This document shows, one piece after another, positions 38,450 through 61,180 of a DNA stretch of 64,000 bases. The translations under genes were made by a program, and so were the position numbers. The stretch spans positions 18,600,001 through 18,664,000 of the forward strand of contig CM097887.1 of the NCBI GenBank assembly GCA_044892525.1, read 5' to 3'. Under the pieces are notes generated by a model that saw only the letters and a list, made by a program, of their open reading frames with translations, was not told the DNA's origin and did not search any database. Origin of the DNA: Schmidtea polychroa (Eukaryota). How positions within the stretch are numbered: the first letter of the stretch is position 1; the number at the start of each line of letters is the position of its first letter.

Positions 38450-39790
38450 TTTTGAAAGAAATCAACAAACAGAAAACAATCGAAGTTTTAAGTATATAAT
38501 CATATTGTCAAGTAAATTTATACATTTAGTTTCAATCCAAATCTCCTGAGCTTTTTCAAAGTCGTCTTCAGTGACACCATCTTAGCTTGGTGGTAACTCG
38601 TAAGTAATTTCAAGAACATCTAATGAAGTGACAAAGTTGTTAGGAAAGAGACCTTTTTCTGAAACAATAGTACTAGTAAAAACAGAGTTGGTCAAAGGTA
38701 AAGTATTCAAAGTTTTCACAACTTTTGCCAAAGAATTATTGACAAAGTGATAAGAATCAATGAATCTTAAACAAATTTTTACCTAAATGACCTATCAACG
38801 AAATAAATTTTTCTAATGTAATAGGAATACAACCTAAACACCAATTTTTAAATTTATTTAAACCATATTTAAGGATGTGGTGCATGTCATATCCCTTCAA
38901 GTTGTGGAATACAATAGACAAACTTTTATTAATTTTTCTATTTACATTGCATATACTACAAGAAGCACCCAAATATTTCGAAATAAAATGATCATGATCT
39001 CTAACATACAAAGATAACAAAGAATGCTGTTATTAAATTCACTTTGTTCTATTTCAGTTAACATATTAATTGTTTTTATACCCATTTTATAATAATAAGG
39101 GAGGACTCTAAGTACCGCTATATTTTCTACAGCTTCTATACAATCTAAACCTATAAATTGCTCGTTCGATTTTGAACCATCAAAATATTTTATTAATAAT
39201 ATCCTGTGGAAAGAGGCAAATGAATTTGATGGTTTACATTAATTTTAGGTAAAATAGATTCGAAATCTGCCTATATAACAAATGGTTGAGTAACAGTTTT
39301 GGACTAATCTGTAAATTTTATGAGATTATTTTCAGGGAAGGTGTAAAGAGTTGTTCCTAGTTTATTCCTTTTAAATAAAATTTTATGTTTTTTCAACGCG
39401 ATTTTATTTCAAAATTTATTTAAGCATCGTTCATACCTTAATGATCTAATTCTATTATTACAACTAATGTTTTCATGGTAGTTCATTAACCTATTTAAAT
39501 TGTATTGACATAATTGTATTGATGACCTTTTTTCATCAATAACAATTTTATAATTTTTCCATCGTTTATTTTTGACCTATGTATAATATCCAAATGTGGA
39601 TGTTTCAAAACATATTCGTTTTCGGTTATCTGGTTTGTTTATAACTAAATTCATTTATTATTAACTCTGGATTCTTAACTTCAAATTTTTTAATACAATT
39701 TAATTTCATTGGCATTTCGATAATATCGTAATTTAATTCTCTTAAAAAGTTAGTATAACTACTACATCTAATACTTAAACCATTAACAAC
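38450..39790 (-). pseudogene. polB: Polinton PolB fragment; target of the large Gypsy insertion
   Basis: PFVIYADFESILPK (~39190-39290), DHDHF..CSICN..VFHNLKGYD, FIDSYHF..KGLFP. Confidence 0.85.
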
Positions 39791-40858
39791 TGTTGGGGTT
39801 CAGTAGGAACCGGAATTAAAGGTTTTGAAATTAAATAATAATTAATTACTAAAATTAGAATTATAATATAAATAGTATTTAAAAATTAGTAAAATTGGAA
39901 CTAAAATATAAATAGTAATAAATAATTACTAAAAATAGAATTGTAGAAATTATTTAAAAATATATAATAAAAATAGTAATTAAATAATTACTATTAATAG
40001 ATCTAAAATAAATAAATTTATATAAATACTAGATGAAAAATTAGATGAGGGACGAATTAGAGACAAGTAGACCAGAAAGAAATATAGCCGCAGTAGTTAA
40101 ATTTAGAAAAGAAGCAATTGATTTGATTTGAAACCAATTAGCGTCAGTTGACATTTATATTGCAGTCTAATTAGGAATTCAACAGTAGACAGAATTTCAT
40201 CCTAAATATTAATCGATCGAAAAATTAATTTTTGCAATTCTGATTTTGGAATATTCTTTATTCATAATTACAATATTCTCTGGAGATATTTAAATCGAAG
40301 AAAGAAAATTATTAGAAGTTAATTCAACAACCAGTCTGTGGTTTTAGCTATTTTCCGGAAGAAATTTAAATAAGCAGGGAATTATATTAGTTAGTATTTG
40401 TTATTCTTATCTAAATAATTATAAATATAAATAGCTATATAGAAATTATTTTATTAATTAAAAGTTAAACTAGGGAAAACAGTAACGTCAGCACGTAATT
40501 TTTGTGTTGTTTCGTTGCTATTATTGCTTGAAAAAGGGTTAACCAATTTCTGGGTTGACTCCATCGCGTAAAATTTGGTAAACTTTCCTATCTCTTTTCC
40601 GTTCACTTATATCGGGCTGTTGGCGCATTTAGGGCCAGCCTTGATCCTTAGTAATACTCTTTAGGGCGGTTTGTATAACCGTTTTCTGTACTTTTAGAAA
40701 GCAGCGTGTTTTATATAAACAATCGTGTAACTAACTTTTATTGTTAATAAATATTTAAAACATATTTCTTATTTACTTACCTACGCGCATTATAAATTAT
40801 TTGGAGTCAGATTAAACGTTTTTGTGTTAGTTCGAATACATACCCATCGAACCTAACA
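39791..40858 (+). repeat. 5' LTR (1068 bp)
   Basis: TGTTGGGG...CCTAACA; matches the 3' LTR except for 4 substitutions seen and an 80-bp extra segment (39851-39930). Confidence 0.98.
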
Positions 40859-40861
40859 TTT

Positions 40862-40879
40862 TGGTGAGCCCGACGTGAT
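40862..40879 (+). promoter_or_regulatory. Primer-binding site, tRNA-Trp type
   Basis: TGGTGAGCCCGACGTGAT 3 nt after the LTR; one mismatch to the classical tRNA-Trp PBS TGGTGACCCCGACGTGAT. Confidence 0.9.
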
Positions 40880-40957
40880 AAAATTATCAGCGGGTAGAAA
40901 TTGAAATAAAACAAAATAGCGTTAGGAACTAGAGCCAGAGTAAAACTGGATAATCAA

Positions 40958-42199
40958 ATGGCAGAGGAAGCTAATGTAAATGCATTTGCCAGATATTCCA
41001 CTCTGCCCGTAAAGGCATTCAGCGGTGATCCGGGAGAATTCCCAGAGTTTATGTCCGAATATTATCAGATGGCCAAAGCATATGCTTATCCAGATAATAT
41101 CATGATACAAAGGCTACCTATATATTTGAAGGGGCTGGCAAGAGAAAAATATAATGACATTATGGCATTACCAGTTGCTCAAGCACCGAAAACATGGGCC
41201 GAAATGAGAGAAGCAATGACTGCTCGAATATTGCCCGGAGATGCGGGAAGAATATTTAGACAACAATTTTATCATCGAAAACAGAATGCCAATGAACATG
41301 TGGGGGAATTTGCACACCAGCTATCATTAATTGCTGAAAGAGCATTTGGTCCAAAAACCACATGGGCAAAGCCGACAGAATTGTTAGTTAAGGATCAGCT
41401 ATGGGCAGGACTTACGCATACAATGAGGAACGCTCTGATATTACATACTAGTGATGATTTCGACGAATTGACACGGAAATCTGTCGTAATTGAAAGCAGC
41501 TTGGAAAAGTCAACCATGTTCCTTGTAAACAGTGAGAGAACACCGGTAGAGTGTTTCAATTGCCATAGAAAAGGGCATATAGCGAAAGATTGTACCAGCA
41601 GGAAAATTATGGACAATCGCAAAAGTATACAATGTACCAAATGTGGGCGGAATAACCACGGTGCGGAAAATTGTAGAGTGCAGAATTTGCAATGTGAAAA
41701 ATGTAAACGAAAGGGACATGTTGCTGCGGTCTGCAAGACTAGAAGTCCTCAGAACAGCAATAATTTTAGTACAATTAAAAGAGATGATGTAAATTCATCA
41801 GGAAAGATAAAATGTCACGGATGTGGGAAATTCGGACATATGATGAGGTCATGCCCTCAGAACCAGAGTGGAAACACGAGTGAGTTCAATAAAAATACCG
41901 ATAAGGGTAATGTGAACAAGCCTAAGACAACTTTTATGGTTAACCAGGATCAAGGATTAACTTATCTGCAACAACTGGAAATGGAAATCCAGGAGGAAAA
42001 GAATAGGTTGGCTAGATTGACCGACCAAGAAGGCACCATCTTCATGGTAGAAGTTGGAAGAGATATATTTCTCAGAAAAAAGGACTCCGTTAGAGAGGAC
42101 CTTCAGGAAACAGAATCAGAGGAGAGTTCCGATGATGAACCTAGTATGGCAACCATACTAAGCGAGTTCGATAGAACCTTCCAGGGAAAGCAAAGGTAA
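40958..42199 (+). CDS. gag: Gag, intact, 413 aa, capsid-like domain plus four CCHC zinc knuckles
   Basis: LPIYLKGLAREKY..TWAEM..FYHRKQNANEHVGEF; CFNCHRKGHIAKDC, CTKCGRNNHGAENC, CEKCKRKGHVAAVC, CHGCGKFGHMMRSC. Confidence 0.95.
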   Translation: MAEEANVNAFARYSTLPVKAFSGDPGEFPEFMSEYYQMAKAYAYPDNIMIQRLPIYLKGLAREKYNDIMALPVAQAPKTWAEMREAMTARILPGDAGRIFRQQFYHRKQNANEHVGEFAHQLSLIAERAFGPKTTWAKPTELLVKDQLWAGLTHTMRNALILHTSDDFDELTRKSVVIESSLEKSTMFLVNSERTPVECFNCHRKGHIAKDCTSRKIMDNRKSIQCTKCGRNNHGAENCRVQNLQCEKCKRKGHVAAVCKTRSPQNSNNFSTIKRDDVNSSGKIKCHGCGKFGHMMRSCPQNQSGNTSEFNKNTDKGNVNKPKTTFMVNQDQGLTYLQQLEMEIQEEKNRLARLTDQEGTIFMVEVGRDIFLRKKDSVREDLQETESEESSDDEPSMATILSEFDRTFQGKQR

Positions 42200-42663
42200 A
42201 AGAAGGGTCAGATACCCTAACAAAATGTTTAAAACTGGTGGATTCCAGATATGAGTACCAGCAGAAGCTGGCCAGACAATTGGGAAAATTGGAAGAAACA
42301 GAAATTAAAATTCACGAAATCGATACAGTTGTAAAACTGATATCGCAGGTCGAAGATGATCCAAAGTATCATAACGACACGTACAAAATCCTAAGGAAAT
42401 TGGGAAAACTCATGGAACATGAATGGGATCTCCAAGATGCCCAACTTAATATAAAACTCCCACAGGATAAAGAGTATAATCTCGATATAAATGTAAGAAG
42501 TCGAGCCGATAAATTAACGGAAACATTGACAAGTATTAAGCATCAAGGATATGACTTATACTTATGTGGAACAAAACTAGAAGCAAATCAAACACTTCTA
42601 CAGAACGGGATACTCCCAGGTAGAGTGACGAAGCTCACAGCAAAGAGAGCACAGAGAATTTAA
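42175..42663 (+). CDS. Accessory ORF2: helical region plus C-terminal ubiquitin-like domain; overlaps the gag end in the -1 frame
   Basis: Frame opens at ~42175. YDLYLCGTKLEANQTLLQNGI resembles the ubiquitin [20 protein letters not shown] pattern. Confidence 0.6.
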   Translation, partial: NLPGKAKVKEGSDTLTKCLKLVDSRYEYQQKLARQLGKLEETEIKIHEIDTVVKLISQVEDDPKYHNDTYKILRKLGKLMEHEWDLQDAQLNIKLPQDKEYNLDINVRSRADKLTETLTSIKHQGYDLYLCGTKLEANQTLLQNGILPGRVTKLTAKRAQRI

Positions 42664-42664
42664 A

Positions 42665-43245
42665 ATGTCAGAAAAAATTCAATATAACATTCATAGCACC
42701 GGGCAGATATCGAATCTGCCAGGGGATTGCAATCTTAGATCGTGGCCGGAAAAAATAATTTTTAATATATCTAAAGTAAAATATTTTTTCTCTAGAAACG
42801 ATTCCCCATCCGGTCTCATAATACAAGATTGGACCTGCATCTGGAGCCTCCTGAAGAACCCTGAATCTGCCAATGCTTCATACATTGGAAAAGCAATCCG
42901 GGGAGATAGGTCGCTCTACCTACAAGGATAGGAGAGCACTAGCCCTGCTGGAGAAGATTGACCAACTATGCCTCATAAAGCTTTCTCACATTGACCTTGA
43001 ATTAATATATAATATATTTAATAGAGTCGGAGCCAAAATTACCGATGAAGCCGGGAAAAGCTGGGGCAGAATGATGCGTCTATATGGAACGAAACAATCC
43101 GAGAAGACCAGATACATCTCCAGCGTTCTTCTTGGAGTGAACGGCCACAATCAGGAGGGAGATGGCATGGCCCTAAGACTGCTCACCTCGATGGCCAGGA
43201 GAACAGAGGAGAACCTCCATATAGACAGGGGAGATTATTTGGATT
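42665..43245 (+). pseudogene. Accessory ORF3 (frameshift ~42915), possible Bcl-2-like BH1 segment
   Basis: Starts 1 nt after the ORF2 stop; IFNRVGAKITDEAGKSWGRMMRLYG. Composition changes abruptly at ~43245. Confidence 0.4.
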
Positions 43246-45530
43246 GTCCTATTTTTAATAACATTAATCATAATAATCGTAATAAAAATTTCAATAATCT
43301 TAACTTAAGTATTCATAATAGTAATTTGGATAATTGTAATGATAACTTGAATAATCCTAACTTAAATACTCGTAATTGTAATTTAGATAATCATAATAAC
43401 AATTTAAATAACCATAATAATAAATTAAATAACCATAATAATAAATTAAATAACCATAATAAAAATTTGTATAATCATAATAATAAAAGGAACTTTGAGC
43501 AAGACAAAAATGACTATAAAGGCATTATAGACAGTTTCACAAATCCTACCCTGCAATATATGCCTATTGACAGAGGAGGTACAGACCCAAATCCGAATAA
43601 ACCCAGCTATAGAGATGCCCTCCTTCGAAGAAATGTATCATATAATAGACCCCCCTCGGGAAAGTCCTCTTTTATACCAAATAATAAGCCGATATCTAAT
43701 ACCCTCAAAGGCTTCGAACTTTATCCTACCTCATATAGCACTATCGCTGATGAAAATAATAAATCATTTAACAACACTAACTCAACCAAATATCTTGATA
43801 AACCAATTTATAATAACCAAACTGCCTTTTATAATGCTCCCAATAATACGCTCCCCTTGATTTCTAAAACAATTTCTATTAATTATAATAATAACCAAAA
43901 TCCTACGCAATATAATTTAAAAATAGACTCAAAAAATTACTCAAAAACAAATAATAATAATCTTATTTTTAACGATAATCAAATACATCAAAATTTAAAC
44001 TCTAATTCCAAATTCAATGAAATAAATAATAACAATGAAATTAATAATGATAAAATTACTCTAAAATGCTTTGAAAATTTAATTATTTTCATTAATAATA
44101 AATTAATCTTAAATATTGAAAGTAAAATAAACAAATATTTGTTTAAATTAAATCAATTTATTAAAATTTCAGAATTTAAAATGTCAGAAAAAAGTTTTTG
44201 CCCTCCTCCGGAGGGCAAAGCTATTGATAGAAGACGCAGCTCATCGGCCTGCGGCCGATTCGCTTACCTTGACACTACCCATAACAACCTAGACCATAAA
44301 AACCTTGACCATAACAACCTTGAACTATCCCTATGCATTGATGAGTTTAAAAATGGTGTTGTTTCTGTGTATCGCGTATAAATGGATTATTTTTTAATAA
44401 TAGCAGCAGGATCCTTGATACTGGTAATCATAATATTAATAATAACAATGAGAACAATGAGAACAATAATAATAATAGTAATAATAATAATTATAATAAT
44501 AAGTATAATAATAAGTATATTAATGATTATAATAATAATAATTATAATAATAATGAAAATAGTAACATCTCCTTATCTTATACCATACACCTCCTCGGGC
44601 AACCGACTTATTTAGAACGGACCCACCATACTCAACTGCCAATATTCAAAAATATAAAGAGGGCGAATGGACATGCCTTCATCAAAGGGCATTTGGCACA
44701 CCTGCCCATCAATCCAGCCGGACTGCGGAACACAAACACGACCCCAGCGACCTCAAACCAGTCAATCCAACCTGAAGATCGATGCTTATACCCACAACCC
44801 AATCAAGCCAACAATAGACAACAATCATCAATCATTCAATATAGCCGAATATCTATGCCTAAACCAATCACAACCAATCCAAACATGACCTCAATCCAAC
44901 CTGAATATAATTAAATCCGACCAGCATATACTTACCCCCAGAAGCCATAATCCAATCAAACCAACAATAGCCAACAATCAACAATCATCAATCACTCAAT
45001 CATTCAATATAGCCGAACATCTATGCTTAAGCCAGACACAACCAATCCAACCAGCCTATACTAACCCCCAGAAGCCACAACCTAACTCAACCAATCTTTT
45101 TGTCTTATGTGTGATTAACCATGACTGATCTCTACGGCAATCCGGACCAGTCAAGAGTCCACCCTATTCTCCTTTGTTGTCTTGCCTCATTCCCATATTT
45201 ATATTTAATTTTATTTAAAACATTTATAACCCTACCAACCTATACCTTACAACCTCTAGCTTCCAACTCTAGCTTCCAACTCTAGCTTCCAACTCTACCT
45301 TCCAACTCTACCTTCCAACTCTACCTTCCAACTCTACCTTCCAACTCTACCTTCCAACTCTACCTTCCAACTCTACCTTCCAACTCTACCTTCCAACCTA
45401 TACCTTCCAACCTATACCTTCCAACCTATACCTTACAACTCTACCTTCAAACCCTACTCTGAACTACAAAATCCCTCTATTATATCCTATATATAATAAT
45501 GTATGTCCATGCATAACCTTATCTATACCA
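43245..45530. other. A/C-rich low-complexity spacer inside the Gypsy element (Asn-rich read-through, (ATA)n, duplicated ~150-bp unit)
   Basis: AAT/CAT repeats at 43260-43490, ATAATA at 44400-44560, imperfect duplication at 44760-45100; very G-poor plus strand. Confidence 0.7.
45238..45452 (+). repeat. 13-14 bp minisatellite (CTCTACCTTCCAA), about 16 copies
   Basis: Directly visible, with variants CTCTAGCTTCCAA and CCTATACCTTCCAA. Confidence 0.95.
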
Positions 45531-45714
45531 AACATATTTTTATTATAGAATTGGAGCCCGTCTAAAGAAGCTCTAACCAATCAGATCTCCCGTTTAACGC
45601 TTGAGCATCTGCTCAGCATTCTCCAGATTACAGATTACAGCTTTAGATTTCGAGGGTCGAGAATCTCTCCCCTAATGCCCGATGGGCCTAACTATGTAGT
45701 ACAATAAAATTTGA

Positions 45715-47058
45715 TTTTTTTTTTTTTTTGATCAAGATAGCGTATTCTTGATTACTCAAATGGAAATAGAGAGATTGGAGGAAACTCAACAATTAAGCCA
45801 ACGACTAGGGTTGGAATTAGCGAAATCTCCACGAGATGGAGAAACTATAAAGGAAATACTTGACTGGATGTTAGTATTACGAATACCAGTAGATTTGTTG
45901 GAAGCAATAATTCCACTTCTACTACCAGTGGTAAAGGAAACAAGCCCATTCCAGACGCAAATTGAAGCACTGATGAGGAAAAATGGTAAAGCTATTCGAA
46001 GTCAGCCTGATAGACAAGGCAACATTAATCTAGACGTAAGAATGATGGGAAAAGAACCATTAACAATGATTTATAATTGTTATATCAAGGTTAAAATATT
46101 GAGGAGAGATGTAATTGCCACCGACCAAACTACAGGTATATTCCTGATAATGGTCCATGGCAGGCAAGTGGATGATGATGAATATCTAGTGGATGTGGGT
46201 TGTCTACCGTTGGCAACAACCACGGTAATGATCATCCCAGTAACTCCACCAGAGTCCCAGTGGTCATTAATGAGACTGCCAGATAAAGCAAACGAATTTG
46301 CGGAAGAGATTGAGGAAATAAGTCTAGAGGAAATTAATCCCTGTCAAATGGTGGACATTGACGAGGAAGATTACTTCTCAGAATACGTCAGATTAAATCC
46401 AGGAGAAACAAACGTAGGAGCTACTACGTCAGAAGCTATAACAAATCCGGAGACTGAAAAACCCCCGGAGAAAGTGAAAAAAGATGGACGAGGACGTCCC
46501 AGAAAGGATAAAATGAAACCTACACCCAAGGAGCAGTTAAATCCGGAAACGATTCGGAAAATTCAGCTAAAAACATTAGCAGGGATAGCTCAAGAAATGG
46601 ACGACCAGGCGGGAGATGAGACAACGCCAGAGAGGTCGTTATTGTGGCAACGTATACAACAAATAATCGGGATTATCAGGCCTGAATGGAGAATTCCAAA
46701 AATCAAGGGTATCGAAGTGAAAAAGATAACGAAGGAGGTCAAGAAGACAATGGACAGAGTATCCAAAGATGTATCAACAGGAGATATTCAGGATGCCATA
46801 GAAGCATTCGTACAGCAAGGATTACCAAGAGGGAAAGTGGTAACATCACTATCATTGTTAATTCAAAATGCCTTAGCCCGAGTAGGGGATGATAAAAGGC
46901 TTATAGAACGAGAAATCGATCAAATAGTCGAAATGGTAGATTATTACCTGGAGGTATGGATGACCGTAAACAAATTTTGGGAAAAGGAAACGATTCCAAA
47001 ACCACGATATGAAGTCGTGGAAGAAGCCATAGATAATGGTAGTTCAGGCACAGGAAAC
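45715..47058 (+). CDS. N-terminal cytosolic part of the env-containing ORF: helical domain, ubiquitin-like domain, acidic tract, AT-hook, Bcl-2-like region
   Basis: LIMVHGRQVDDDEYLVDVG (UBL-like); GRGRPRK (AT-hook); EAFVQQGLPRGKVV and EVWMTVNKFWE (BH1/BH2-like). Confidence 0.55.
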
Positions 47059-49535
47059 ATGACAAGCATGATCCTGATGTTCCTAGTAATGATGGGCATA
47101 TTAAAACAAACAAATTCATTAACAGTATTTGACTGTGGACATCCTAAACTATCTCGGGTATATTCGCTAGTAGATGCAATTGAGTGCAAAGAGGCGTATC
47201 CCGAGAAGGTTCATCAAGGGGAAAAGGTAGAATATTACGTCTACCAAGAGAGTGAATTTTATAGAACCACGATAAAGGAATGTAGAATCCAGAGAGCTAC
47301 ATTTGAATATTATTGCGGTAGTAATAGCTATTCTGCTTTTCTATCTGCAACATTAATACCAAGGCCGGTAAACATAATGCCCGAAGATTGCTTAGATGCA
47401 TTTCGAAAAGGAAGTGTGAGGATAGACAACGAGGTATCAATCTCAGCAGAAATTGGGAAAACATTGGGAATAACAATCACTCGAGGAGGAACAATTGCCT
47501 CAGATGGAACCTACGAAGGTAGAAAGAAAATTCGCGGCAGCAATTTAGTTTCCTATTTGGTAGACATAGAAGATTACTCAGTGGAGCTACGAGAATACGA
47601 GGGAATATTCGATGTGGCCACAGGAAAATTGATGGCACATCCGCAATGCAATGCCAAGTTCGGTAGTTGTAAAACGGGAACCACTACATTAATTTACGAA
47701 CAAATGAGAGATCATTGTGAGTTGGCTTTCCTCAAGAAAATTCCTTTTAGAAAATTAAATGGAACTAAATATCGGGACTCCCAAAATCCAGAAAAGGTTG
47801 TGGATAAAGCAAAAACGTTGAAGAAAATCAACAAACAAGAGAAGGAAGATATCGGAGAGGAAAACACACCTCTAGTGTTGATATCGGAAGACAAGACGGA
47901 CTAAAGACTAAATGTGGAAAAAGAGTATACGAGACGAACTACAAAGGAATCTTCCTGTCAAGAGAATATATTCGAAATTCCAAGGTCCTACACGTAAAGG
48001 ATATCAAAATCACAAATTATATAAATAATAAAGTAGATTATTTATATCATGGTCTGCAAAGAAAAATGCAAGATATGTATCAAGAGGTGATACTAAACGA
48101 TTGCAAGCTAAATCGTGAAATAGTCCGAAATAGATTAGCAATATCTATCGTTAACCCAGAGTTGGTTACTCCAATGTTATTGGAAGATGGAATGTTTGGC
48201 AGAATCATGGGAGAAGCTATATATAGCTACGAGTGTAAACCAGTGGAAGTACAATTAGCCAGATTTAATCAATCCACTCTAGAACTGCCAGTGTCTTACC
48301 AAGGAAAATTGAGATTTGTTATTTTTTTTTTTTTTTTTTCAAAACCCAAAATAGACTATATCACACAATAATGAGCAATTTGATCTATTGTGCCCATGAA
48401 GAATTCCGGTTGTCTTCATTCAATTTAATATCACCTACATCCCAACCATTAACATCTTCAAGTGGGCCAAGCTGCCCGATCATATCAGTGGAATAATTAC
48501 ATGTGGATATCTTTGCCGGAAAGAAAACCATCTACACAACGGGTAGAGACCTTGGAGGTAACTAAATTAAAAGATAATCTGGAATTCAAGTCATTAGACA
48601 AATTAGCAAAAGGAGGGATCTATACTCCCGACGATATCGAGGAAGCAAGAAGGACATCGCTATTCCCACAAATCAGAGACAGAAGTATCACGGAAATTAT
48701 AAGAACAATTTATCATGATGACTTAATACGACCTGATTACAATCTATTATTTGGACCGGAACACTACAAAGAAGCAGTAAAGAACGTAATGATGAAAATA
48801 TGGGGACGATTTACCAATTTTGGTATTTTCGTCGCCGGATGTTCAGGAATCTACGCAATATTTGTAATTTTAAAGTTGATAATTACACAACTGATGTCAA
48901 CATATAGCATATTCAAAATTGGGGGATGGTCATGGAAACTGCTATTAGGACTATGTCCTATGTGTGCAGAGTTTGCATTATTCAAACATCACAGAAAAGA
49001 AATTAAAGAAATTAGACAGAAACATTTGGTCAAACATGAAGTAATTGGAACAGAAATGGAGGAGTATTCGAGTTATCGGGACTATAACAATTCAAAGGGA
49101 GGAGGTAATGGAGGCTCTCGTGAAACATCTTCAAGATCAAATCAATCACGAAAACAGAACTACGACAAAAAACCGATTCAGCAACAAAGAAAATCGAGAT
49201 TTAAGGAATATCTTTCTCCATATGACCAATCAAAGGAAATCTACGTGAGAAATCAGTCCTCAGAAGGAGAATATGACAGTTCCGACCAAAAATTCGACAT
49301 AAGGTCACCCAGATTCAAGAGAAGTCCAAGATATGTACAATTGCCAACTTTGAGGAGTTTACCATCCGCACCAAACGAGGGGCGGGAACATTCAAGGGAA
49401 ACAACACTCAGAACAGGACGACACCAATGGAAAATCGGTGAAGATACCATATTTAATAATCTGACATGTTCAACATTGCCAAAACTACCTAAAGTACACT
49501 ATCCAAAGGAAGCGTTAGGGTCAATTAAAGCTTAA
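47059..49535 (+). pseudogene. env: Env-like class III fusion glycoprotein resembling chuvirus G, disrupted
   Basis: Internal signal MILMFLVMMGIL then LTVFDC..SLVDAIEC..KECRIQR..YYCG; after a frameshift at ~47905, YINNKVDY..MYQEVILNDC..NRLAI..GEAIYSYECKPVEV..LELPV; GGIYTPDD..FP; TM at 48818-48895. Cysteine/motif spacing matches chuvirus glycoproteins as recalled. Confidence 0.8.
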
Positions 49536-52500
49536 TTTAAAGAGTATAATCCTCAACTGAGTGATCCTGAATTACTGGAAGCAGAACAAACGAGAGCCAA
49601 TACAATCGGTATCTCGCACGATACTATCTTGATGGTCAATAACCCAGTGAATTTGGATAAAAAGCCAATGATAAAAATAAGAGTGAACCGGCATACAGTT
49701 AATGCGGTGATAGACTCAGGAGCAGATGGTACCATAATTGAAGCTAAATTGTTAAACCATCATGAACTGCAGTCGCTAAAACCAGCAGGAGTAAAATTAA
49801 CAGGAGCAAACGGATCCTCATTAAACGTAATAGGGTCATTATCATGCCAGATTAAGCTATGTGACCAGGAGCTCCATCACGACATCATAGTGATGAGAAG
49901 TCTCCCAGCCGTATGTCTATTGGGTATGGACATCCTAAAAAGACTACGAGGAGAAGTATTCGATTGTGCATCTGGATTGTTAATCCGAGCACGAGGTATA
50001 AAGAGAAAAAGTTACAATGATGATACACCTTATATTGATCATACAACTATCATACCACCCAGAGCAGAAACAGTATGCTTTGTAGCTACAAGCAATAATT
50101 GGGAAGGTGAAGTTGTATTTGAACCAGACGAAAGATTTTCGGAGAAATACAATATACCAGTTACGCATAGCGTAGGTTTAATAGTCAATGGCAGAATATC
50201 AATCAGGGTAGCCAATCTGGACATTAAACCACTTTACTTATATCCAGATACCAGAGTGGGCAGAATCTGGAAACAAAACGAACCACAAACCACGGGAGAA
50301 GGGTCGATACTCACCGTAAAGGCAGAAGAAAGAGATCCAGACATTGAGTACTACGATGCACCTACAGCAAATAGCAAAGTGCTAACCAGAAAGGAAAATA
50401 TTCAAGTAAATATGCTATTGAGGAAATACGACCAGGTATTCGCCAAACATGAATACGATCTGGGAAAAACAAACCTGTTAGAACATGAGATTGTTCTCAC
50501 CAATACAAAACCTATAAAGTTGAGACCATACCGTATTTCATTCAGTCTGGAGGAATCAGTAGATAGACAGGTGAAATTGATGTTAAAACACGGCATAATC
50601 AGGCATAGTAAATCACCATATCAATCACCAATGATAGTGGTGGCCAAGAAGGATGGATCAGTACGATTATGTAACGACTATCGCATGGTTAACGAAGCAA
50701 CATGCAAAGATAGCCATCCATTGCCATTGTTAGATTATATCTATGGACGCATGAGAAACGCTAGGTTCTTCCCAGTAATGGACGCCCAAAGGGATTTTAT
50801 CAAATTAAGTTAAAAGATAAGATTATACCAATAACAGCGTTCTCTACGAGTATGGGTCATTACGAATATAACGTAATGCCATTTGGACTCACAGGAGCTC
50901 CAGCCACATTTCAAAGAGCAATGAATTTGATGCTCATGGATGTACATCATGCGATGGTATACATTGACGACGTCATAGTATTCTCGCCAAATTTTGAAAA
51001 ACACTTGGAACATTTAGAAGATGTATTCAAGAGGTTGATCAACGCAAACATGAAAGTGAAACCAACCAAATGTAAATGGGCTGAACCAGAAGTGGTATAT
51101 GTTGGCCATATCATATCACGAGACGGAGTTAAACCCGATCCAGCTAATGTTGAAAAGGTAAAGAATTTCCCGGAGCCTAAAACCGTTAAACATATTAAAG
51201 GGTTTTTAGGCCTAGTTGGATATTAGAGAAAATTCATTAGAAACTTCTCGGTTATAGCCTTTCTACTCACGCAGTTAGAAGGCAAAAACGTCAAATTTGT
51301 GTGGGGAACAGAACAGCAGGAAGCATTTGATATGCTCAAAGAAAAACTCGTCAAGCCTCCTATATTGCGATTTCCAGACTTTGAAAGACAATTTTTGGTT
51401 ATGACAGATGCCAGCACTCGGGGCATAGGTGCTGTGCTAGGTCAGAGAGATGACCTAGGAGATGAGTATGCAATTGAATACGCTAGCAGAGGATTAAAAC
51501 CACACGAGAGAAACTACGCAGTGATAGAACTAGAGGCTTTAGCAATTGTGTATGCTATAACCCAGTTTAGGACTTATCTATGGGGTCGGAAGATCATAGT
51601 ATACACCGATCATAGACCATTACAGTGGCTGACAAAACACACAATGGATACTTCAAAACTAGTCAGATGGGCATTAATTTTACAGCCATATGACATAGAA
51701 ATCCATTATAGAAAAGAGATCATAATGGAAATGCAGACGCTTTATCGAGAATGGACCAGGAGGAAGAAGCAGAAGATGTGAAGGAAGGACGTCTCAAAGG
51801 GACTATCTTCACATTGACCAGAGAAGCCAACCGGCTAGCTGATTTAATGGAGGCACAAAAATCTGACGAAGAAATCAATGTTATTCGTCAAGCCTTAGAA
51901 GCAAAATACGTGCCCACAGAACTCACGAAATACTGGGAAAAGAATAAAGACAAGTTTGTGCTGGAGGAAGGATTAGTTAAATATTCAGATGTAAGAGATA
52001 ACGTTATAATGGTTCCTAAGAAATACCGTGAAGCACTCATATTGCAGTATCACGATGGAGCCTTAGGAGGCCACCTGTCATCTAGAAAACATTATAGAGG
52101 TTAAAACAAAATTATTATTGGCCTGGTATGAAACAAAATGTTAAAACCTGGTGTCAGACGTGTAAGATCTGTATCACCAGAAGAAACACCGGAAAGAAAC
52201 CACACGTGCCAATGAAGCCCATGCCAGTACCATCTACACCTATGGAGATGACGGAAATTGACGTGTTGGGGCCATTTAAAGAATCCAATAGCGGAAACAA
52301 GTACATATTAGTGTTCTGCGATTACTTGACTAAGTGGCCAGAAGCCTACCCGATGCCTAATCACAAAGCTGATACAATAGCTAAAATCTTTGTTGAACAA
52401 ATTGTCTTTAGGTATGGAGTACCTACAAAGTTATTAACAGATCGGGGAGCTGATTTCATGAGTAATTTGCTCAAAGGAATAAACGATTATTTCAGAGTTT

Positions 52501-53200
52501 TAAAGTTGAATACTTCCCCATATCACCCACAGATGGATGGGCTAGTAGAACGATTTAATGGAACATTAGCTAATATGTTAGCTTCATATGTAAATTCAGG
52601 GCAAACGGATTGGGACATCCACATCCCCTCCTGTTTATTTGCATACAGAAATGCAGTGCACGAGGGAACAGGTGAAACACCATTTTACCTAATGTATCTA
52701 AGGCAAAGTAAAATGCCAGTAGATCTGTTGTTTGCCCTAAAGCAACACAGTATTTAGATCAAGAAAATTATCTAATAGAAATGAGGGAAAGAATGCAGGA
52801 AGCATGGGCTAGAGCAGGTCTTAGTATAAAATATAATCAGGAAGCATCCAAAGATTATCATGACCGAAAAGCCAAAGATCATGGCATAATGGTTGGAGAC
52901 CAGGTGATGTTGGAAAGCCATTATAACAAGAAAGGCTTATCACCAAAACTCATGCGGAACTTCAAAGGGCCATATGAGGTATTGAGAACCACGGATACAA
53001 ATCTCATATTACAACTTGTAGCCAACAGAAAAGCAGAACCAATAATGGTACATGCTAATCTGTGTAAAAAGTGCGAAATCTCAACAAAAGGAACCTCTGA
53101 AAATTCAAAAGTAAAAACACCAGAGAAACATGTGAAACCAAACACTACCGAAGAACCACAAAAACACCGATACCTATTGAGATCACTGGGTGTTCCAAAA
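49536..53200 (+). pseudogene. pol: Pol (PR-RT-RNase H-IN), multiple lesions
   Basis: IDSGAD protease; MPFGLTGAPATFQR and YIDDVIV RT; TDASTRGIGAVL, ELEALA, TDHRPL RNase H; HDGALGGH..CQTC, IDVLGP, TDRGADF, GLVERFN integrase; GPYEV module. Confidence 0.97.
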
Positions 53201-53203
53201 TCG

Positions 53204-54133
53204 GTAACCTTTGTGTTGATAATAAGCTGTATGATGACTTTGGCAATGGCAAAAAGAGATAAAAAGGCATATTTTCAGCCTATGGCTATGCAAGTGGAAC
53301 ACTTACATTTTATAAGAACGTATCACGGAATTAGCATACTCACAACGTGCGATAATGCTACAAAATTCAATTTACATTTCTACAACAAGTACTTGCGGAT
53401 CCGCCAACTCAATTCAGAAGAAAAAGAGTAGGATTTAAATGATTTAAAAGCCGAGACGGATTATAAACTGCATATCGCAGCATCAAGGTTATATCAGAGT
53501 GGTTGGTATACCTATCACGTATCAAATTGGATCCTAAGGACGGCGGATTTCACAAATCGCATATCGATATCCTACGAAAGGGATAAAGTAAAGTTTAGTC
53601 AGCAAATTAACAGGGAGGAAAAGGTGAAAGTCTGTATTCTAGACGGACCAACCACGAGAGAAACATTATGGTTAGACCAGAACTCTCCCTCCCAAGAAAT
53701 GTATCTAAATCAGTCCGTAGATTACTCAGTTCTAGTTATATACTATAGTCCGAGGAAACGGCAGGACGATAGGTGGTTCGAGGTATTCGAGGAGATATTA
53801 CCTCTGAAACAGCCAGTTATAACGAAAACACCTCCAAAAGTAGTCAGGGAAAACATGGTGATACATCCCGCAATGTGGCAACATCTTAGTCAGTTGCCAC
53901 CTATCAAACAAATATCTTGCCAAACGCCCCCTAACCTGACAAACTGTTGTGATTGTAATGCCATCACGAACTTTAATGCAGGATACATTCTGAAAATACC
54001 CATAGGAGTATGGATTACGGTATCAGCCGTACTATCACTAGTAACTACACTGATAGCTATGGGTATTTGGACCAAGCTATATTTTAGACAAGCCATAAGG
54101 GTTTACGATCGAGTACTGATGTCGCAATTATGA
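53204..54133 (+). pseudogene. Second type I membrane protein continuing from the integrase C-terminus (signal, FN3-like ectodomain, TM); one in-frame stop
   Basis: VTFVLIISCMMTLAMA; single TAG at 53429; LNDLKAETDYKLHIAA and LNQSVDYSVLVI resemble FN3 strands; TM IGVWITVSAVLSLVTTLIAMGIW. Confidence 0.6.
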
Positions 54134-54259
54134 CAATTACAGACTCCCCTGAGGGAAAAATCATATATAAATATTTATATATATCTTAAAATCTATATTT
54201 ACGTAGAGCTCCAGGTAGCATTAAAATTCAGCATATGTAGATCTTTTATAATAAGACTC

Positions 54260-56419
54260 ATGCATATCTTTTTAGCCTATTATGGCATATCAGTATATCT
54301 GATATTATGGTTAATGATTTTTATTTCAGGAATGCAGAGCCATCCAATATCCCAATACCAAGGAAGACATAGCATTATACGTGCTACGACCTTACTAAAG
54401 GAAAAACTTATTTATAAAAACCTGGAGAAGCAGGTAATGGAGCAAAGCAGGAAAGGACAAAGGCACTGGTTTTACGGACATTCCTCAGGTATACCCAATA
54501 ATTTCAAATTTGACGAGGCCCCAAAGCGCCAAATGATTATTTCAAGAATCCCGGGCAAGCATAACGGCAGTATTAAGCTTACCGAGGTCATGCCTGAGTT
54601 TGGCAGACATAGTCTGACCAACCACCTGTGGATACACGCCATTAACAAACCATTTACGGTTTATGTTCCTGGTGCCACAAACCCCATTTTGCTGCAAAAG
54701 CATACAACCCTGGAAATTGAAAACGGGGATGGAAAGGAAAAGAACATCTCACTGTTATGTGAAGGAATAGATACCATCGTAGCAATGGAAATACTGGAAC
54801 CTCACAGAGAAACACAAACGAGATGGGTTAATGATCCGAATTGGACATATAATGTTAATGATAACGACATTAAAACGTTTAAGTCTTTCGTAAGACAGCG
54901 CTTGAACCCTAGACAAGAGGATAACCTCACCATTTTCGTATCAGCTCACTACGCTACACTACGACAATTCCTGAAACCGGCAATTGTGGCCATCTCAATC
55001 TCACATTTCAATGGCGATCTGATACTCAACACTAGAGTTACCCCCAGAGCACAGGTCAAACCTTACCAATCGCATGCGCATGGTATGACCGAGAGAGAAA
55101 TAACCGGACAGTTCGACGGAGAAGACTGTGCCGAAAGAATTAGGAAAATCTGCGATAGGAAAATCATCGTGGGATTGCTAGTAAAGGACCTATTTGAAGT
55201 AATCAGATTCCCAATGCATCGCGCACTCGGAATCCGTGAGTTAGGCGTAGCTAAATGCCTCGAAAGTAGGGACTTAAAGAAATGCAACGAGTATTACCGT
55301 TTGGCATATTTGGCAAAAGCAGTCACCGGTAAAGAGGCACATCACTTCTCGGACCTTCAAACGGAGAATGATGTAACAACCATTAAGGAGATATACGACA
55401 GTTTACGAGATATCTGGGTTGATGACATTTCAACAGACACCCGGAAAGAGGTGGTGTCTTCACAAATAAAGCAGATGGAACCTAGTACCTCAAGCATGCA
55501 GAAACCTTTAGCTATGGAGAGCTATGTAAAAGAAGTTATTCCCAGGTCGACGCTGCTGAAAATAGTGGAAGAGGATTCCTTGTCGCCGCCAGCCATCTCT
55601 ATTGCTGACGAAGACGACTATGCCACTTGCAAGAGCGCGGATGATAACTGCCTCCAAGTCACCCTCACCAATGACGGTAGAGTGGTAAATTCGGCTAAAA
55701 TGGAAACAGAAAAACCACCGCCACCAGAAAAGTTAGTTGAACGGGTCACCAAGATCTTGAAAGCATTGGCCCGGTTGAGTGAACCCAAACAAGGAGCAGA
55801 AGGAGGAGCATTACCCCAAGCTGTAGCACCACTACTTAAGCTACAAGATTTAAAATTTAAAAAGAAAACAACAGAGAAACCCACCCAGAAAGAGGACAAG
55901 GAGAAAGATGTCCCTACCTCTACGAAAAGGAAAAAGGAGATTCCTAAGAGTACAAAAAAGAAAATGCCTAGGATATCCATCCAGGATGAGGATGACGATC
56001 TCTTAGAAACCCACTATCAGCCACCAGATCCTGCATTGACCAAGATATTGGCAACAAAGAGTGAACCCACGATTGCAGGAGAGCCTATCGTCGTGAAGGA
56101 AGGAGAGTTCGTCGGAAGGGGCAACTCAGGCAAAATACGGGAAGACCTCGACAGAGAAGATCCTAGTTGGTGGCAGAGACCCGACAGCAAATGGAAATCG
56201 CGTATCACGGAATACGACGGAGGCCCAATCCATGAAGTAGCCGTATCCAATTTCCCCGATTACGGAGTATTGGAGGCTAATGAGGGCTCGTACATCATCT
56301 CCTCAATCGTGTACAGAGGTAGTACACGGGAGACTTTGGTGGTCAGTTACAGACCAGACATAGTAGAACAAAGGATCCGTAACGAAAGTGCCAAGGTCAT
56401 GAAAAGGAGAAAATACTAG
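54260..56419 (+). CDS. Intact 719-aa accessory ORF with degenerate REX4/ISG20-like DEDDh exonuclease domain and C-terminal basic (NLS-like) tail
   Basis: AISISHFNGDLILNTRVTP..VKPYQSHAHGMTEREI..RKIIVG..RLAYLAKAVTG..NDVTTIKEIY follows the REX4 pattern; TTTCAG/G acceptor at 54324-54330. Confidence 0.65.
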   Translation: MHIFLAYYGISVYLILWLMIFISGMQSHPISQYQGRHSIIRATTLLKEKLIYKNLEKQVMEQSRKGQRHWFYGHSSGIPNNFKFDEAPKRQMIISRIPGKHNGSIKLTEVMPEFGRHSLTNHLWIHAINKPFTVYVPGATNPILLQKHTTLEIENGDGKEKNISLLCEGIDTIVAMEILEPHRETQTRWVNDPNWTYNVNDNDIKTFKSFVRQRLNPRQEDNLTIFVSAHYATLRQFLKPAIVAISISHFNGDLILNTRVTPRAQVKPYQSHAHGMTEREITGQFDGEDCAERIRKICDRKIIVGLLVKDLFEVIRFPMHRALGIRELGVAKCLESRDLKKCNEYYRLAYLAKAVTGKEAHHFSDLQTENDVTTIKEIYDSLRDIWVDDISTDTRKEVVSSQIKQMEPSTSSMQKPLAMESYVKEVIPRSTLLKIVEEDSLSPPAISIADEDDYATCKSADDNCLQVTLTNDGRVVNSAKMETEKPPPPEKLVERVTKILKALARLSEPKQGAEGGALPQAVAPLLKLQDLKFKKKTTEKPTQKEDKEKDVPTSTKRKKEIPKSTKKKMPRISIQDEDDDLLETHYQPPDPALTKILATKSEPTIAGEPIVVKEGEFVGRGNSGKIREDLDREDPSWWQRPDSKWKSRITEYDGGPIHEVAVSNFPDYGVLEANEGSYIISSIVYRGSTRETLVVSYRPDIVEQRIRNESAKVMKRRKY

Positions 56420-56818
56420 CAATTCGGCTATGTGTTCAATGGACCTAGCAATTTGTATACGTCCTCAATCCCAGCACCTTCGACAATTCAATCCAATCCA
56501 GTTATTCAAATTGACAGACATTTACTTTACGAACAATATTTGATTAATTTGATTTCGGTGTTGATTTTGTTTATTTTAACATTTTTTTTATGAACAATCT
56601 CTGATTATTTTNNNNNNNNNNNNNNNNNNNNNNNNNNNNNNNNNNNNNNNNNNNNNNNNNNNNNNNNNNNNNNNNNNNNNNNNNNNNNNNNNNNNNNNNN
56701 NNNNNNNNNNNNNNNNNNNNNNNNNNNNNNNNNNNNNNNNNNNNNNNNNNNNNNNNNNNNNNNNNNNNNNNNATTGTCTTGTCTTTACCGCTTTAATTTT
56801 CGGGACGAAAATCTTGTT

Positions 56819-56828
56819 AGGGGGAAGA
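56819..56828 (+). promoter_or_regulatory. Polypurine tract
   Basis: AGGGGGAAGA 2 nt before the 3' LTR. Confidence 0.9.
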
Positions 56829-56830
56829 CA

Positions 56831-57818
56831 TGTTGGGGTTCAGTAGAAACCGGAATTAAAGGTTTTGAAATTAAATAATAATTAATTACTAAAAATAGAA
56901 TTGTAGAAATTATTTAAAAATATATAATAAAAATAGTAATTAAATAATTACTATTAATAGATCTAAAATAAATAAATTTATATAAATACTAGATGAAAAA
57001 TTAGATGAGGGACGAATTAGAGACAAGTAGACCAGAAAGAAATATAGCCGCAGTAGTTAAATTTAGAAAAGAAGCAATTGATTTGATTTGAAACCAATTA
57101 GCGTCAGTTGACATTTATATTGCAGTCTAATTAGGAATTCAACAGTAGACAGAATTTCATCCTAAATATTAATCGATCGAAAAATTAATTTTTGCAATTC
57201 TGATTTTGGAATATTCTTTATTCATAATTACAATATTCTCTGGAAATATTTAAATCGAAGAAAGAAAATTATTAGAAGTTAATTCAACAACCAGTCTGTG
57301 GTTTTAGCTATTTTCCGGAAGAAATTTAAATAAGCAGGGAATTATATTAGTTAGTATTTGTTATTCTTATCTAAATAATTATAAATATAAATAGCTATAT
57401 AGAAATTATTTTATTAAATAAAAGTTAAACTAGGGAAAACAGTAACGTCAGCACGTAATTTTTGTGTTGTTTCGTTGCTATTATTGCTTGAAAAAGGGTT
57501 AACCAATTTCTGGGTTGACTCCATCGCGTAAAATTTGGTAAACTTCCCTATCTCTTTTCCGTTCACTTATATCGGGCTGTTGGCGCATTTAGGGCCAGCC
57601 TTGATCCTTAGTAATACTCTTTAGGGCGGTTTGTATAACCGTTTTCTGTACTTTTAGAAAGCAGCGTGTTTTATATAAACAATCGTGTAACTAACTTTTA
57701 TTGTTAATAAATATTTAAAACATATTTCTTATTTACTTACCTACGCGCATTATAAATTATTTGGAGTCAGATTAAACGTTTTTGTGTTAGTTCGAATACA
57801 TACCCATCGAACCTAACA
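56831..57818 (+). repeat. 3' LTR (988 bp)
   Basis: Direct repeat of 39791-40858. Confidence 0.98.
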
Positions 57819-58235: not shown

Positions 58236-59510
58236 TTAATACGTAATATCATTCGACATATCAGTCAATTTACATTCATTCATACTGCGATCCTTAGCAT
58301 TATTCATACATTTGTCAACAGCCTCTTTCAACGTTAACAATAAAAACCGTTTTGAGTAGCCATTCTTCACCAGTAATTCAACTAATTTATCTACACTTTT
58401 TACTGAATTTTTAAAAGTGGAAGATAAGCACCATGATCGATAAACCAATCTTTTCACTATGTTTTATTTATATTTAAATTCACAAAAACTCTCTGGGTAG
58501 TATAGAAGCCGGTATCTGTTGGTTTGCTGTAAATTTCTGTCTTATATTGTTCATCTTTGCGTTTAATTAACAATTCAAGAAATGCTATGGATGAATCCTT
58601 CTCAGTTTCACATGAGAATTTAATGTTCTTATGCAATCCATTCATGTAATGCAAAAAAGGCTTCACATGTCCCTTATTTTTAAATATTAGAAAAATATCA
58701 TCAACATACCTTTTATACACAATTGGTTTTTCATATTGAAAAAAAGCAATTTTCTTTTCTAAACATGCCAAAAATATTGACGCCATTGTTGGTGCTAAGG
58801 GCGGACCCATAGCCACTCCATCAATTTGTTCATACCATTCATTATTAAAAAGAAAATTAACTTTGTAAGTTGCAAACTCTAAAAGCGTCTTAAATGCATT
58901 TCCATCACACATATTATGCGCATTAATATTTTCATTCCATAATTCACAACATAAATCGATTGTTTCTTTCAACGGGACATTAATAAATAAACTAAATACA
59001 TCAAACGAAACCATATACTCATTAACATTATTTTTATTATATTGTACTATACATGATGCAAATTCAAAACTGTCCTTACATTCAAACTCAGATTTTATTA
59101 AGGGTTTTAATAATCCATCCAAATACTTCGCTATTTTATGCTGAGCTGTTCCGACCATATATAAAACAGGTCTTTATGCACTTTTGGAAGTCCGTATAAT
59201 TTAGCTGGCTGTGAAACTTTTGCATGAATTAATTTTGCTATCTCTTCATCAATATGATTATTCTTAACCAAATCACACAACATAGTATTCAAAATCACTT
59301 CATCCTTTAGAGGTGGCAATCTCCCTTTTTTTCGAAACTTATCGATTTTTGAAAATTAGGAATGTCTGATTTTAAAATCTTATCAAAAAATTTTGATAAT
59401 TGTTTTGAGCGTGTGATATGTGAAGCATTATTGATAAGAACTTTTAATCCTAAAATCAATGTGCAGAATGCAGTGAATACTTGTGTGTTGAATGTTTTAA
59501 TTAAGTTTTT
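58236..59510 (-). mobile_element. Second Penelope-like element of the same family; RT on the minus strand with an inverted 3'-end copy at 59361-59510
   Basis: PAKLYGLPKVHK, SFDVFSLFINVP, YEQIDGVAMG, YKRYVDDIF. Plus-strand MSDFKIL..CEALLI..KINVQNAVNTCVL matches 36400-36540. Confidence 0.9.
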
Positions 59511-59820: not shown

Positions 59821-60399
59821 GACATAAAACATCAGTCATACCTGGATTGTTATAATACTAACCAAATTTTTTCTGTACCGCAAAATAGAGTAGTTAGCAA
59901 AAATCACCAGCTATTAACCATAAAAAATGAAAAACTGCACTTACTAAATGATAAAAGGGGTTGGGTGGGGAAAAATAAAAGTTATGTATATGGGCATTAT
60001 ATGGGAGGTGCCTCATTTGCTGTTTAAATAATTCTATCCGGATCCATCATTCTCGCAATTCATAGAATCAGCTGAAGATATACCAGATATTATTTAAATA
60101 AATCTTTGTTAAAAAAATTTGTTTTTATTGATTTTCTTTTGAATTAAATGTATATTAAGTTTGACCAATATATTTTTATATTTTGAACATTTTTGTCTCA
60201 GTTTACGTAAATTAGTAAAAAAAAGTATTAAAAATAACAGATAAGAATTAATAATTTAAATTTAAACTAAAATAAATTAAATAACAGAATAAAGAAATAA
60301 AATTATAATAATTAACTAAATAAAAATAATAAAATAAAAGGAAATAATCAATGAAAATGTTTGTTAAATTCTTATTAGTAAAGGGGTACCAAATTGTTG

Positions 60400-61180
60400 C
60401 CGTAAGCTCATATCTACCTACTATAGTCAAAAGAGGAAAACTACGACAACACGAACTAGGGAGAAAATTTGCAAAATTCCGGAACCAGGTTTATTTGAAA
60501 CAATATTTATAGATTTTTGTGGTCCACTAAAACAAAGTCAGTATGGAATGAGATATATCGTAGGAATTATCGATAGTTTTAGTAAATATGTGGCACTACA
60601 CACAGTGAAATCACAAGATGAAAATACCGTGCCAACAATTTTAAGAAATAATTGGATTTTAAAATTTGGTGCGCCGAGATTTCTACATTGTGACAGGGGT
60701 AAAGCATTTGAGAGCAAAGCTATGGATAATTTAATGAAGTAGCACAACCTTCATTTAGTAAATGGCCTAATCGAAAGACAATTCAGAACAATTAGAAACG
60801 CCATTCGTATCACTCTTAAAGATAAAGACCACAAGAATTGGGTAGAGTTATTACCAGAAATCGAGTTTATGTTAAATTCTACATTTCAGAAAACAATTTG
60901 ACAAACTCCAAGTGAAAGAGTTTTGGGAAAAAATATATAAAAAATGATCTACAAAAAAGTTAGTTGAGAATATGGGTTTTGACGAAATAACAGAAAGAAA
61001 ATTCAAAGTAGGAGACATAGTGCCTGTAAAAAGGAATGATAACAATAAAGACAAGGATCGATATGTTGGACCTGCCGCAGTAATAAAACAAATACACGAG
61101 AGAAGTTATGAAGTAAAATTTGAGAATGGAAAAGGGCTTATAAGAAACAGAGTGGCTAAAGCTTTCTAAAACTAGGGGAT
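60400..61180 (+). pseudogene. Integrase remnant of an unrelated Gypsy element, with PPT (AGGGGA, 61174-61179) and probable LTR start TG at 61180
   Basis: IDFCGP, IIDSFSKYV, LHCDRGKAFES, NGLIERQFRTI, YVGPAAVIK. Confidence 0.85.

Follow-up and report, generated by a model that had tools for sequence, protein, structure and literature searches.

In a family of Ty3/gypsy LTR retroelements from Schmidtea polychroa, the Gag-G-Pol polyprotein continues past the integrase into a second membrane protein. This post-integrase module is predicted to comprise a signal-like segment, two FN3-like domains, a stalk, a transmembrane helix (TM) and a short cytoplasmic tail. The gag-env-pol layout of such elements is already published; the module was not found described in full-text literature searches. 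New here is a class I PDZ-binding motif at the very end of the polyprotein, present in nine of ten lineages. With a probability of roughly 45%, the module is tentatively read as an adhesion-like accessory protein that would dock budding at cell contacts organised by PDZ proteins, thereby enabling the fusogen to pass particles to the neighbouring cell.

The window, i.e., the whole stretch of 64,000 nucleotides that was analyzed, comes from an AT-rich animal genome of 781 Mb and contains an LTR retroelement at 39791-57818. The traits of Ty3/gypsy GAG-ENV-POL elements were found, namely TG...CA LTRs, a primer-binding site and a target-site duplication, together with the order PR-RT-RH-IN and a gB-type env between gag and pol (Pfam). 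The element is composed as follows:

39787-39790: target-site duplication of 4 bp, 5' of the 5' LTR, with the second copy directly after the 3' LTR
39791-40858, plus strand: 5' LTR with TG...CA ends, matching the 3' LTR in 984 of 992 aligned bases
40862-40879, plus strand: primer-binding-site-like sequence, read from the sequence, with tRNA-Trp as the presumed primer
40958-42655, plus strand: Gag (Pfam Retrotrans_gag, three CCHC knuckles) and linker, the start of the polyprotein in uninterrupted copies
42655-45730, no strand assigned: insertion of about 3.07 kb in the window copy, missing from all four long-ORF copies fetched
47060-48950 (approximate limits), plus strand: class III (gB/Monjiviricetes-type) fusion glycoprotein G, containing an internal signal and a TM; disrupted in the window copy
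49671-53077, plus strand: PR-RT-RNase H-integrase with GPY/F module, in the window copy interrupted by several stops and frameshifts
56831-57818, plus strand: 3' LTR, from the alignment to the 5' LTR

Three pieces of G in the window matched Pfam PF24664 with E-values of 1e-17 to 2e-24 (7e-87 in L064), and G also gave weak BDV_G and Glycoprotein_B matches. The window copy is decayed through stops, frameshifts and the 3.07-kb insertion; without the latter, the element measures about 15 kb, and the ORF of the family has 3369 aa. The insertion holds an Asn-rich ORF and 13-14-bp tandem repeats, and a 46-nt arm within it is an inverted repeat of 8254-8299. Beyond the 3' LTR, an unrelated non-LTR reverse transcriptase fragment (58457-59173, minus strand) and an integrase fragment (60368-60742, plus strand) were seen by eye.

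The frame 52712-54133 runs through the GPY module, a linker, the hydrophobic segment, the ectodomain with its stalk, the TM and the tail to a stop at 54131. The features of this region and of the sequence behind it are:

53168-53182, plus strand: the integrase tail finishes with a [RK]Yx[LF]R motif, seen in 10 of the 11 tails inspected and reminiscent of the foamy-virus chromatin-binding motif
53204-53251, plus strand: internal signal-like hydrophobic segment (13-aa hydropathy 2.47), with a signal-peptidase cut predicted at its end; dN/dS 0.24
53300-53548, plus strand: predicted FN3-like domain 1, seven strands (model block pLDDT 66-94); dN/dS 0.11
53552-53812, plus strand: predicted FN3-like domain 2, seven strands (AlphaFold, Foldseek, VIA); dN/dS 0.26
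53813-54001, plus strand: Pro/Cys-rich stalk, whose Cys cluster also occurs in the sister family F1b; dN/dS 0.24
about 54002-54070, plus strand: transmembrane helix predicted from hydropathy; dN/dS 0.17 together with the tail
54071-54130, plus strand: cytoplasmic tail of 20 residues, ending in the class I PDZ-binding motif S-x-L-stop (54122-54130)
54131-54139, plus strand: polyprotein stop with CAR-YYA readthrough context, in 30/30 loci of the window family (F1) and 2/2 F1b loci
54134-56419, plus strand: in-frame downstream ORF of 761 codons, DEDDh/ISG20-like exonuclease family; dN/dS 0.15

The original prediction had placed a signal-like segment, a Pro/Cys-rich stalk and a TM in this region, all of which were recovered. 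Its ectodomain of about 250 aa corresponds to the 251 residues found for ectodomain and stalk together, which divide into two domains of about 185 aa and a stalk of about 65 aa. The frame that it had traced to 54133 contains, as it had claimed, a single TAG at 53429-53431, within domain 1. N-glycosylation sequons were present in 9/9 ectodomains checked. In 8 of 11 tails, the signal segment sits 2-28 residues past the [RK]Yx[LF]R motif. Such closeness to the integrase tail would suit a module that chiefly keeps Pol at the membrane for packaging via its signal segment, the ectodomain being a folded spacer, and with env between gag and pol, Gag does not carry Pol. However, the TM of G already tethers the N-terminus of Pol, and an anchor needs neither selected, glycosylated FN3 domains nor a PDZ-binding motif. 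This explanation is considered improbable.

The relation of the module to the integrase was assessed across genomic copies. A DNA search of the genome, with 40 of 169 candidates scored, gave at least 30 loci, window counted; in a protein search, 146 of 308 candidates were scored and gave 149 matches, and the genome thus carries at least 146 scored matches. The terminal stop was kept in 30/30 loci, and the frame 53204-54130 was stop-free in 22/30. A frameshift near 52731, which splits the integrase core from its tail, was private to the window (0/29 other loci); thus, the integrase fusion is a property of the family that is broken in the window copy. A stop-free single ORF of 3366-3369 aa was found in 4/149 protein matches, and one long-ORF copy carries a Gag knuckle, G, PR, RT, RH, IN and the module in a single frame. 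From these frames and their order it follows that the module is the C-terminus of one Gag-G-Pol polyprotein, so the second membrane protein proposed to lie in frame with the integrase does so in the long-ORF copies. The frame is accordingly shared with the integrase in other copies, whereas the TAG is not: at 53429, a stop was found in only 2/30 loci and the position was open in 28/30. Programmed readthrough of this TAG was rejected on that count, and the stop is attributed to decay.

For the dN/dS analysis proposed earlier, 25 loci were compared pairwise after five near-duplicates had been dropped; one or two more were dropped where regions were unaligned. The module as a whole gave a dN/dS of 0.20, compared with 0.06 for the integrase core and 0.56 for the linker. 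Variants common to at least three copies comprised 38 synonymous and 20 non-synonymous changes, with 3.5 times more non-synonymous than synonymous sites. Purifying selection thus acts on the module. The broken window copy and the lack of a Pfam family or stand-alone homologue might suggest that the frame is captured debris evolving neutrally, or is open by chance. This was ruled out by this dN/dS and by the PDZ-binding motif relative to controls; the conserved stop and a layout kept in eight families and three outside proteins also speak against it, and next to no weight is given to it. Among the copies, identical inverted pairs lying 7-23 kb apart (genome G000, C2:168994744/169017840, C70:89983/108382 and C1:191557473/191564856) represent duplication or assembly artefact. 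Two copies, L093:7573-9999 (minus strand) and L098, have lost most of pol through internal deletions and still encode both G and the second membrane protein; in L093, a single open frame covers the two.

The fold of the ectodomain was approached by sequence and by structure prediction. Pfam fn3 (PF00041) gave no match at E-values up to 0.1-10 for the window, the members of alignments A1 and A2, the other families or the outside proteins P0007-P0009, and a PDB sequence search with the ectodomain gave none either. No usable stand-alone homologue of the ectodomain was found, including by word-index searches; P0001, the sole match of a profile run against 1.84 billion representatives, was dismissed as a tandem-repeat artefact. 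An AlphaFold model from six close rows reached a pLDDT of only 39, with domain 2 alone ordered, and VIA on this model was not decisive (Z 7.0-7.7). A second model was built from 12 rows that included distant families, with a natural copy 91% identical to the window as the query. It reached a pLDDT of 76.9 and a pTM of 0.56, and it predicts two seven-stranded beta-sandwiches of about 90 residues each. In Foldseek searches against the PDB, the top rows consisted solely of tandem FN3 pairs (E 7e-6 to 2e-4), and 178 matches were obtained at E up to 0.001. The best partners were CD45, fibronectin, DCC, LAR, NCAM, integrin beta-4 and cytokine receptors, at 6-15% identity, and no single solved structure stood out among all the matches (5-16%); the TM-scores were low because the inter-domain angle differs. 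Viral structural matches were themselves FN3-bearing proteins with similar E-values. VIA on the 12-row model gave Z 8-9, with FN3 level with bacterial Ig-like domains, so that the FN3 subtype rests on Foldseek. Thus, the FN3-like repeats anticipated by the original prediction, and with them a beta-sandwich fold, were recovered in the model.

The prediction had also cited the FN3 signature L-x-P-x-T-x-Y-x-V-x-V-x-A. At 53435-53482, in domain 1, its Leu, Thr, Tyr and alternating hydrophobic residues are kept, but its Pro is absent. The Leu and the Tyr are two of just four near-invariant columns in the 12-row alignment of relatives. By eye, the strand-B Trp is absent from both window domains and present in domains 1-2 of families F2-F4. 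On the predicted structure, the module is FN3-like in fold, yet it is not a member of Pfam fn3.

Its capture as a host receptor fragment, as first proposed, found no support in the comparisons made. The module resembles host proteins combining FN3 domains, a TM and a PDZ-binding motif (CD45/LAR-type RPTP, DCC, NCAM, FNDC5/9) in its predicted tandem seven-stranded sandwiches, stalk and single TM, and differs from them in its 5-16% identity, the missing Pfam fn3 match and the lack of an identifiable donor. Atlas scores of 0.86-0.88 to host FN3-type surface proteins are leads only. From 90 listed host FN3 stretches, 30 were fetched and 28 compared. Domain 1 of the three-repeat families reached E 5e-5 in the profile comparison (0/20 shuffles as high), window domain 1 reached E 0.012 (1/20 shuffles) and domain 2 gave no link. 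These sequence links are weak, and no donor gene was recognized among the 28 stretches.

These comparisons also bear on whether the module imitates a host FN3 receptor of the adhesion, guidance or phosphatase type, as a decoy or with dominant-negative effect. Such a mimic would compete for a ligand or a PDZ scaffold or block superinfection, joining other host-manipulating cargo. The fold matches do include CD45, LAR, DCC, NCAM and cytokine receptors, and sister families bear Bcl-2-like, ubiquitin, ankyrin, MATH/TRAF and BIR-RING cargo; polarity proteins are, moreover, often disturbed by viral PDZ motifs (PMC4810129). A mimic would, however, be expected to keep the likeness of its model, and neither the solved matches, none of which stands out, nor the 28 host stretches with their weak links provide one. 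The WSXWS motif and paired cysteines are features of the class I/II cytokine receptor homology region; by eye, neither WSXWS nor a paired-cysteine pattern was seen in alignments A1 and A2. Finally, the other cargo differs among families, while the module slot is fixed. The decoy is therefore regarded as rather unlikely.

The module was found well beyond the window family. A post-integrase arrangement of signal, one to three repeats and TM was present in 8/8 families sampled and in three outside proteins. Families F2, F3, F5, F6 and F7 had been found by G or BIR profile searches blind to the module, and in all five the integrase is followed in frame by a signal-like segment, an ectodomain and a TM. 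F1b and F4 were found via the module, and the outside relatives were reached through the integrase alone. The sister family F1b shows about 41% identity and the same order. Three repeats occur in F2 (ORF of 3334 aa), F3 (3419 aa) and F4 (3437 aa), and one in F5 and F6; the Burro-like F7 has ankyrins followed by about three Cys-bearing repeats. P0007-P0009, from other public assemblies, have the three-repeat form, with P0008 cut short and the signal-like segments of P0007 and P0009 below the hydropathy threshold of 2.0.

The three repeats are mutually related, repeat 3 being the one to which F1 domain 2 corresponds (E 7e-6); the F1 ectodomain was linked to those of F2 and F3 at E 4e-5. Between the repeats of F1-F4 and F5-F7, no significant link was obtained (hhalign E 0.008-0.7), the FN3 nature of the latter being judged from motifs seen by eye, and the ectodomains of F1, F2-F4, F5-F6 and F7 are barely alignable to one another. 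The integrases of the module families are 49-67% identical to that of the window. In a quick integrase tree of the sequences of the present analysis alone, all 11 module-bearing rows fell within one 16-row group (SH-aLRT 93). The five other integrase relatives of this group, P0010-P0014, have no TM after the integrase, and thus the module is not universal there. It is nevertheless clade-wide and old, not a fresh fragment.

Several relatives differ in the cargo around this slot. In P0010 and P0012, the place of the membrane module behind the integrase is taken by one or two aspartic-protease domains, and the more distant Pol P0015 has a post-integrase signal-like segment followed by what may be the beginning of an Ig-like domain, where the record breaks off. 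A Bcl-2-like domain lies between Gag and G in F2-F5 (L091, L126, L127, L128), accompanied in F2 by a ubiquitin-like domain. In F7 (L108:4148-9371, L109:103-1281), ankyrins lie between the integrase and the membrane module, followed by separate TRAF/MATH and BIR-RING ORFs; the BIR ORF of 392 aa is highly multi-copy. For the window family, no Bcl-2, MATH, BIR or ankyrin match was found with Pfam.

At the cytosolic end, sequences fitting the class I consensus S/T-x-hydrophobic-COOH (PMC4810129) recur as [ST]x[VIL]-stop in F1, F1b, F2, F3, F4, F5, F7, P0007 and P0009, although the lineages are related and these nine of ten are therefore not independent draws. Within F1, the motif was present in 30/30 loci. 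F6 has S/T-x-C at this position in all but one of 12 related loci, the exception having an earlier stop. As controls, the motif was found at 0/118 other Pol match ends, many of which may be truncated, and at most at 25/409 ORF ends as background, element ends included. In F2, a PPxY motif directly precedes the PDZ-binding motif (L090:5350-5392). The motif persists past alignable ectodomain similarity, and the cytosolic end is the most conserved cross-family feature. This conserved, putative PDZ-binding motif, which the original prediction had not noted, suggests that the protein acts at the membrane of the cell that makes it. The motif would indicate scaffold binding at best, and its role could instead lie in trafficking or in virion incorporation.

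The stop that creates this end may be leaky. The CAR-YYA sequence after it was found only in F1 and F1b, and the frame behind it is then open for 761 codons in the window. CAR-YYA is the TMV-type (type I) readthrough context (PMC13517186), and by its sequence the terminal stop is a putative readthrough signal of this kind; where readthrough occurred in F1 and F1b, the PDZ-binding motif would be buried in part of the molecules. The downstream exonuclease-like ORF is common to F3-F5, its F4 homologue matching ISG20L2 with E 2.5e-9, and its first acidic motif is degenerate in F1. The spacer 54134-54331 shows low diversity at all codon positions, with two shared variants, both non-synonymous. A splice-acceptor-like sequence just before 54332 offers an alternative route to the downstream ORF.

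A mechanism for adhesion-like docking at cell contacts can be proposed from the predicted topology. First, the polyprotein would cross the membrane four times, at a signal, the TM of G, a second signal and the final TM, which would leave Gag and Pol cytosolic, the G and FN3-like ectodomains luminal and the tail cytosolic. Second, signal peptidase and the protease of the element would release the parts, and the module, made 1:1 with G, would thereby become a free type I membrane protein that combines two FN3-like domains with a tail for PDZ binding. Since G lies inside the polyprotein without a natural free C-terminus, the last protein would supply the PDZ-binding end. Third, the tail would hold the budding site at cell contacts by docking on the PDZ scaffolds there, and the ectodomain would bind a partner on the next cell. 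Against this mechanism, the variable repeat number (1-3) and sequence fit receptor-binding or decoy roles equally well.

In the two-component entry first proposed, the module would ride on the virion beside the class III fusogen as an attachment protein, bind a receptor and trigger G, while the PDZ motif would merely sort it to the budding site. Herpesvirus gD and gH/gL act so for gB. Module and G do come from the same ORF, the module was found in every G-bearing family sampled, and the ectodomain is variable, constraint being weaker on domain 2 than on domain 1 (dN/dS 0.26 vs. 0.11). However, it is the cytosolic end and not the ectodomain that is most conserved across families. In addition, for most gB-type errantiviruses the text of PMC13524379 describes no envelope component besides env, so that this fusogen type is not generally dependent on a partner. 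A virion attachment protein is judged less probable than docking at cell contacts, though more so than a decoy.

That source (Chary and Hayashi, eLife 2026, PMC13524379) describes GAG-ENV-POL errantiviruses with an HSV/gB-type env from Platyhelminthes, Nematoda and Bryozoa, and its supplement holds six Smed_errantivirus entries of about 14.5-18 kb. The window element shares with them the Ty3/gypsy LTR organization, the gB-type env before pol and a similar size, and, judged by these described traits, very likely belongs to the same clade. A difference is the second membrane protein, which is not described there: the main text, figures aside, mentions no fibronectin, immunoglobulin, PDZ, attachment or accessory protein, and the seven supplementary files mention neither fibronectin nor FN3. 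The giant planarian Burro/GYPSM1 elements (Arkhipova and Yushenova 2019, PMC6431247) likewise encode a single polyprotein with an env, of mononegavirus-like type, in frame between gag and pol. They exceed 30 kb, with an ORF of about 4900-5100 aa and MATH/BIR/ankyrin/BCL2 cargo, none of which applies to the window family. The available text of PMC6431247 lists no post-integrase membrane protein and does not mention fibronectin, whereas the Burro-like F7, with its ankyrin, MATH and BIR cargo, also has a post-integrase TM module.

Two systems illustrate how retroid membrane proteins may act at cell contacts. In HTLV-1, Env carries a class I motif through which it binds DLG1 at virological synapses, and this motif promotes cell-cell fusion (PMC4810129). 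The module resembles it as a retroid membrane protein whose cytosolic end fits the same consensus; in HTLV-1, however, the fusogen itself bears the motif, while here a separate FN3-like protein does so. The accessory TM protein sORF2 of Drosophila MDG1-group retrotransposons serves direct cell-to-cell transfer (bioRxiv 10.1101/2025.03.14.642691). Both are accessory transmembrane proteins of LTR retrotransposons, but sORF2 is a short FAST-like fusogen that replaces Env, whereas the module has predicted folded FN3 domains, is part of the polyprotein and coexists with Env.

Taken further, the clade as a whole might make a two-glycoprotein envelope from one polyprotein, consisting of a class III fusogen and an FN3 adhesion or attachment protein whose PDZ tail builds a virological-synapse-like contact, with a leaky stop switching the tail between PDZ anchor and nuclease-like extension in the F1 family. 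This extended proposal is more speculative than docking at cell contacts, if less doubtful than a role in attachment only. To our knowledge, accounts of retroviruses and errantiviruses feature just one envelope protein; if the proposal is true, this would be, as far as the literature searches show, the first retroid lineage with a separate attachment protein. A second surface protein would imply an undescribed step in the cell-to-cell movement of these abundant, recently active elements, and the PDZ-binding motif could explain their access to the stem or germ cells of the host.
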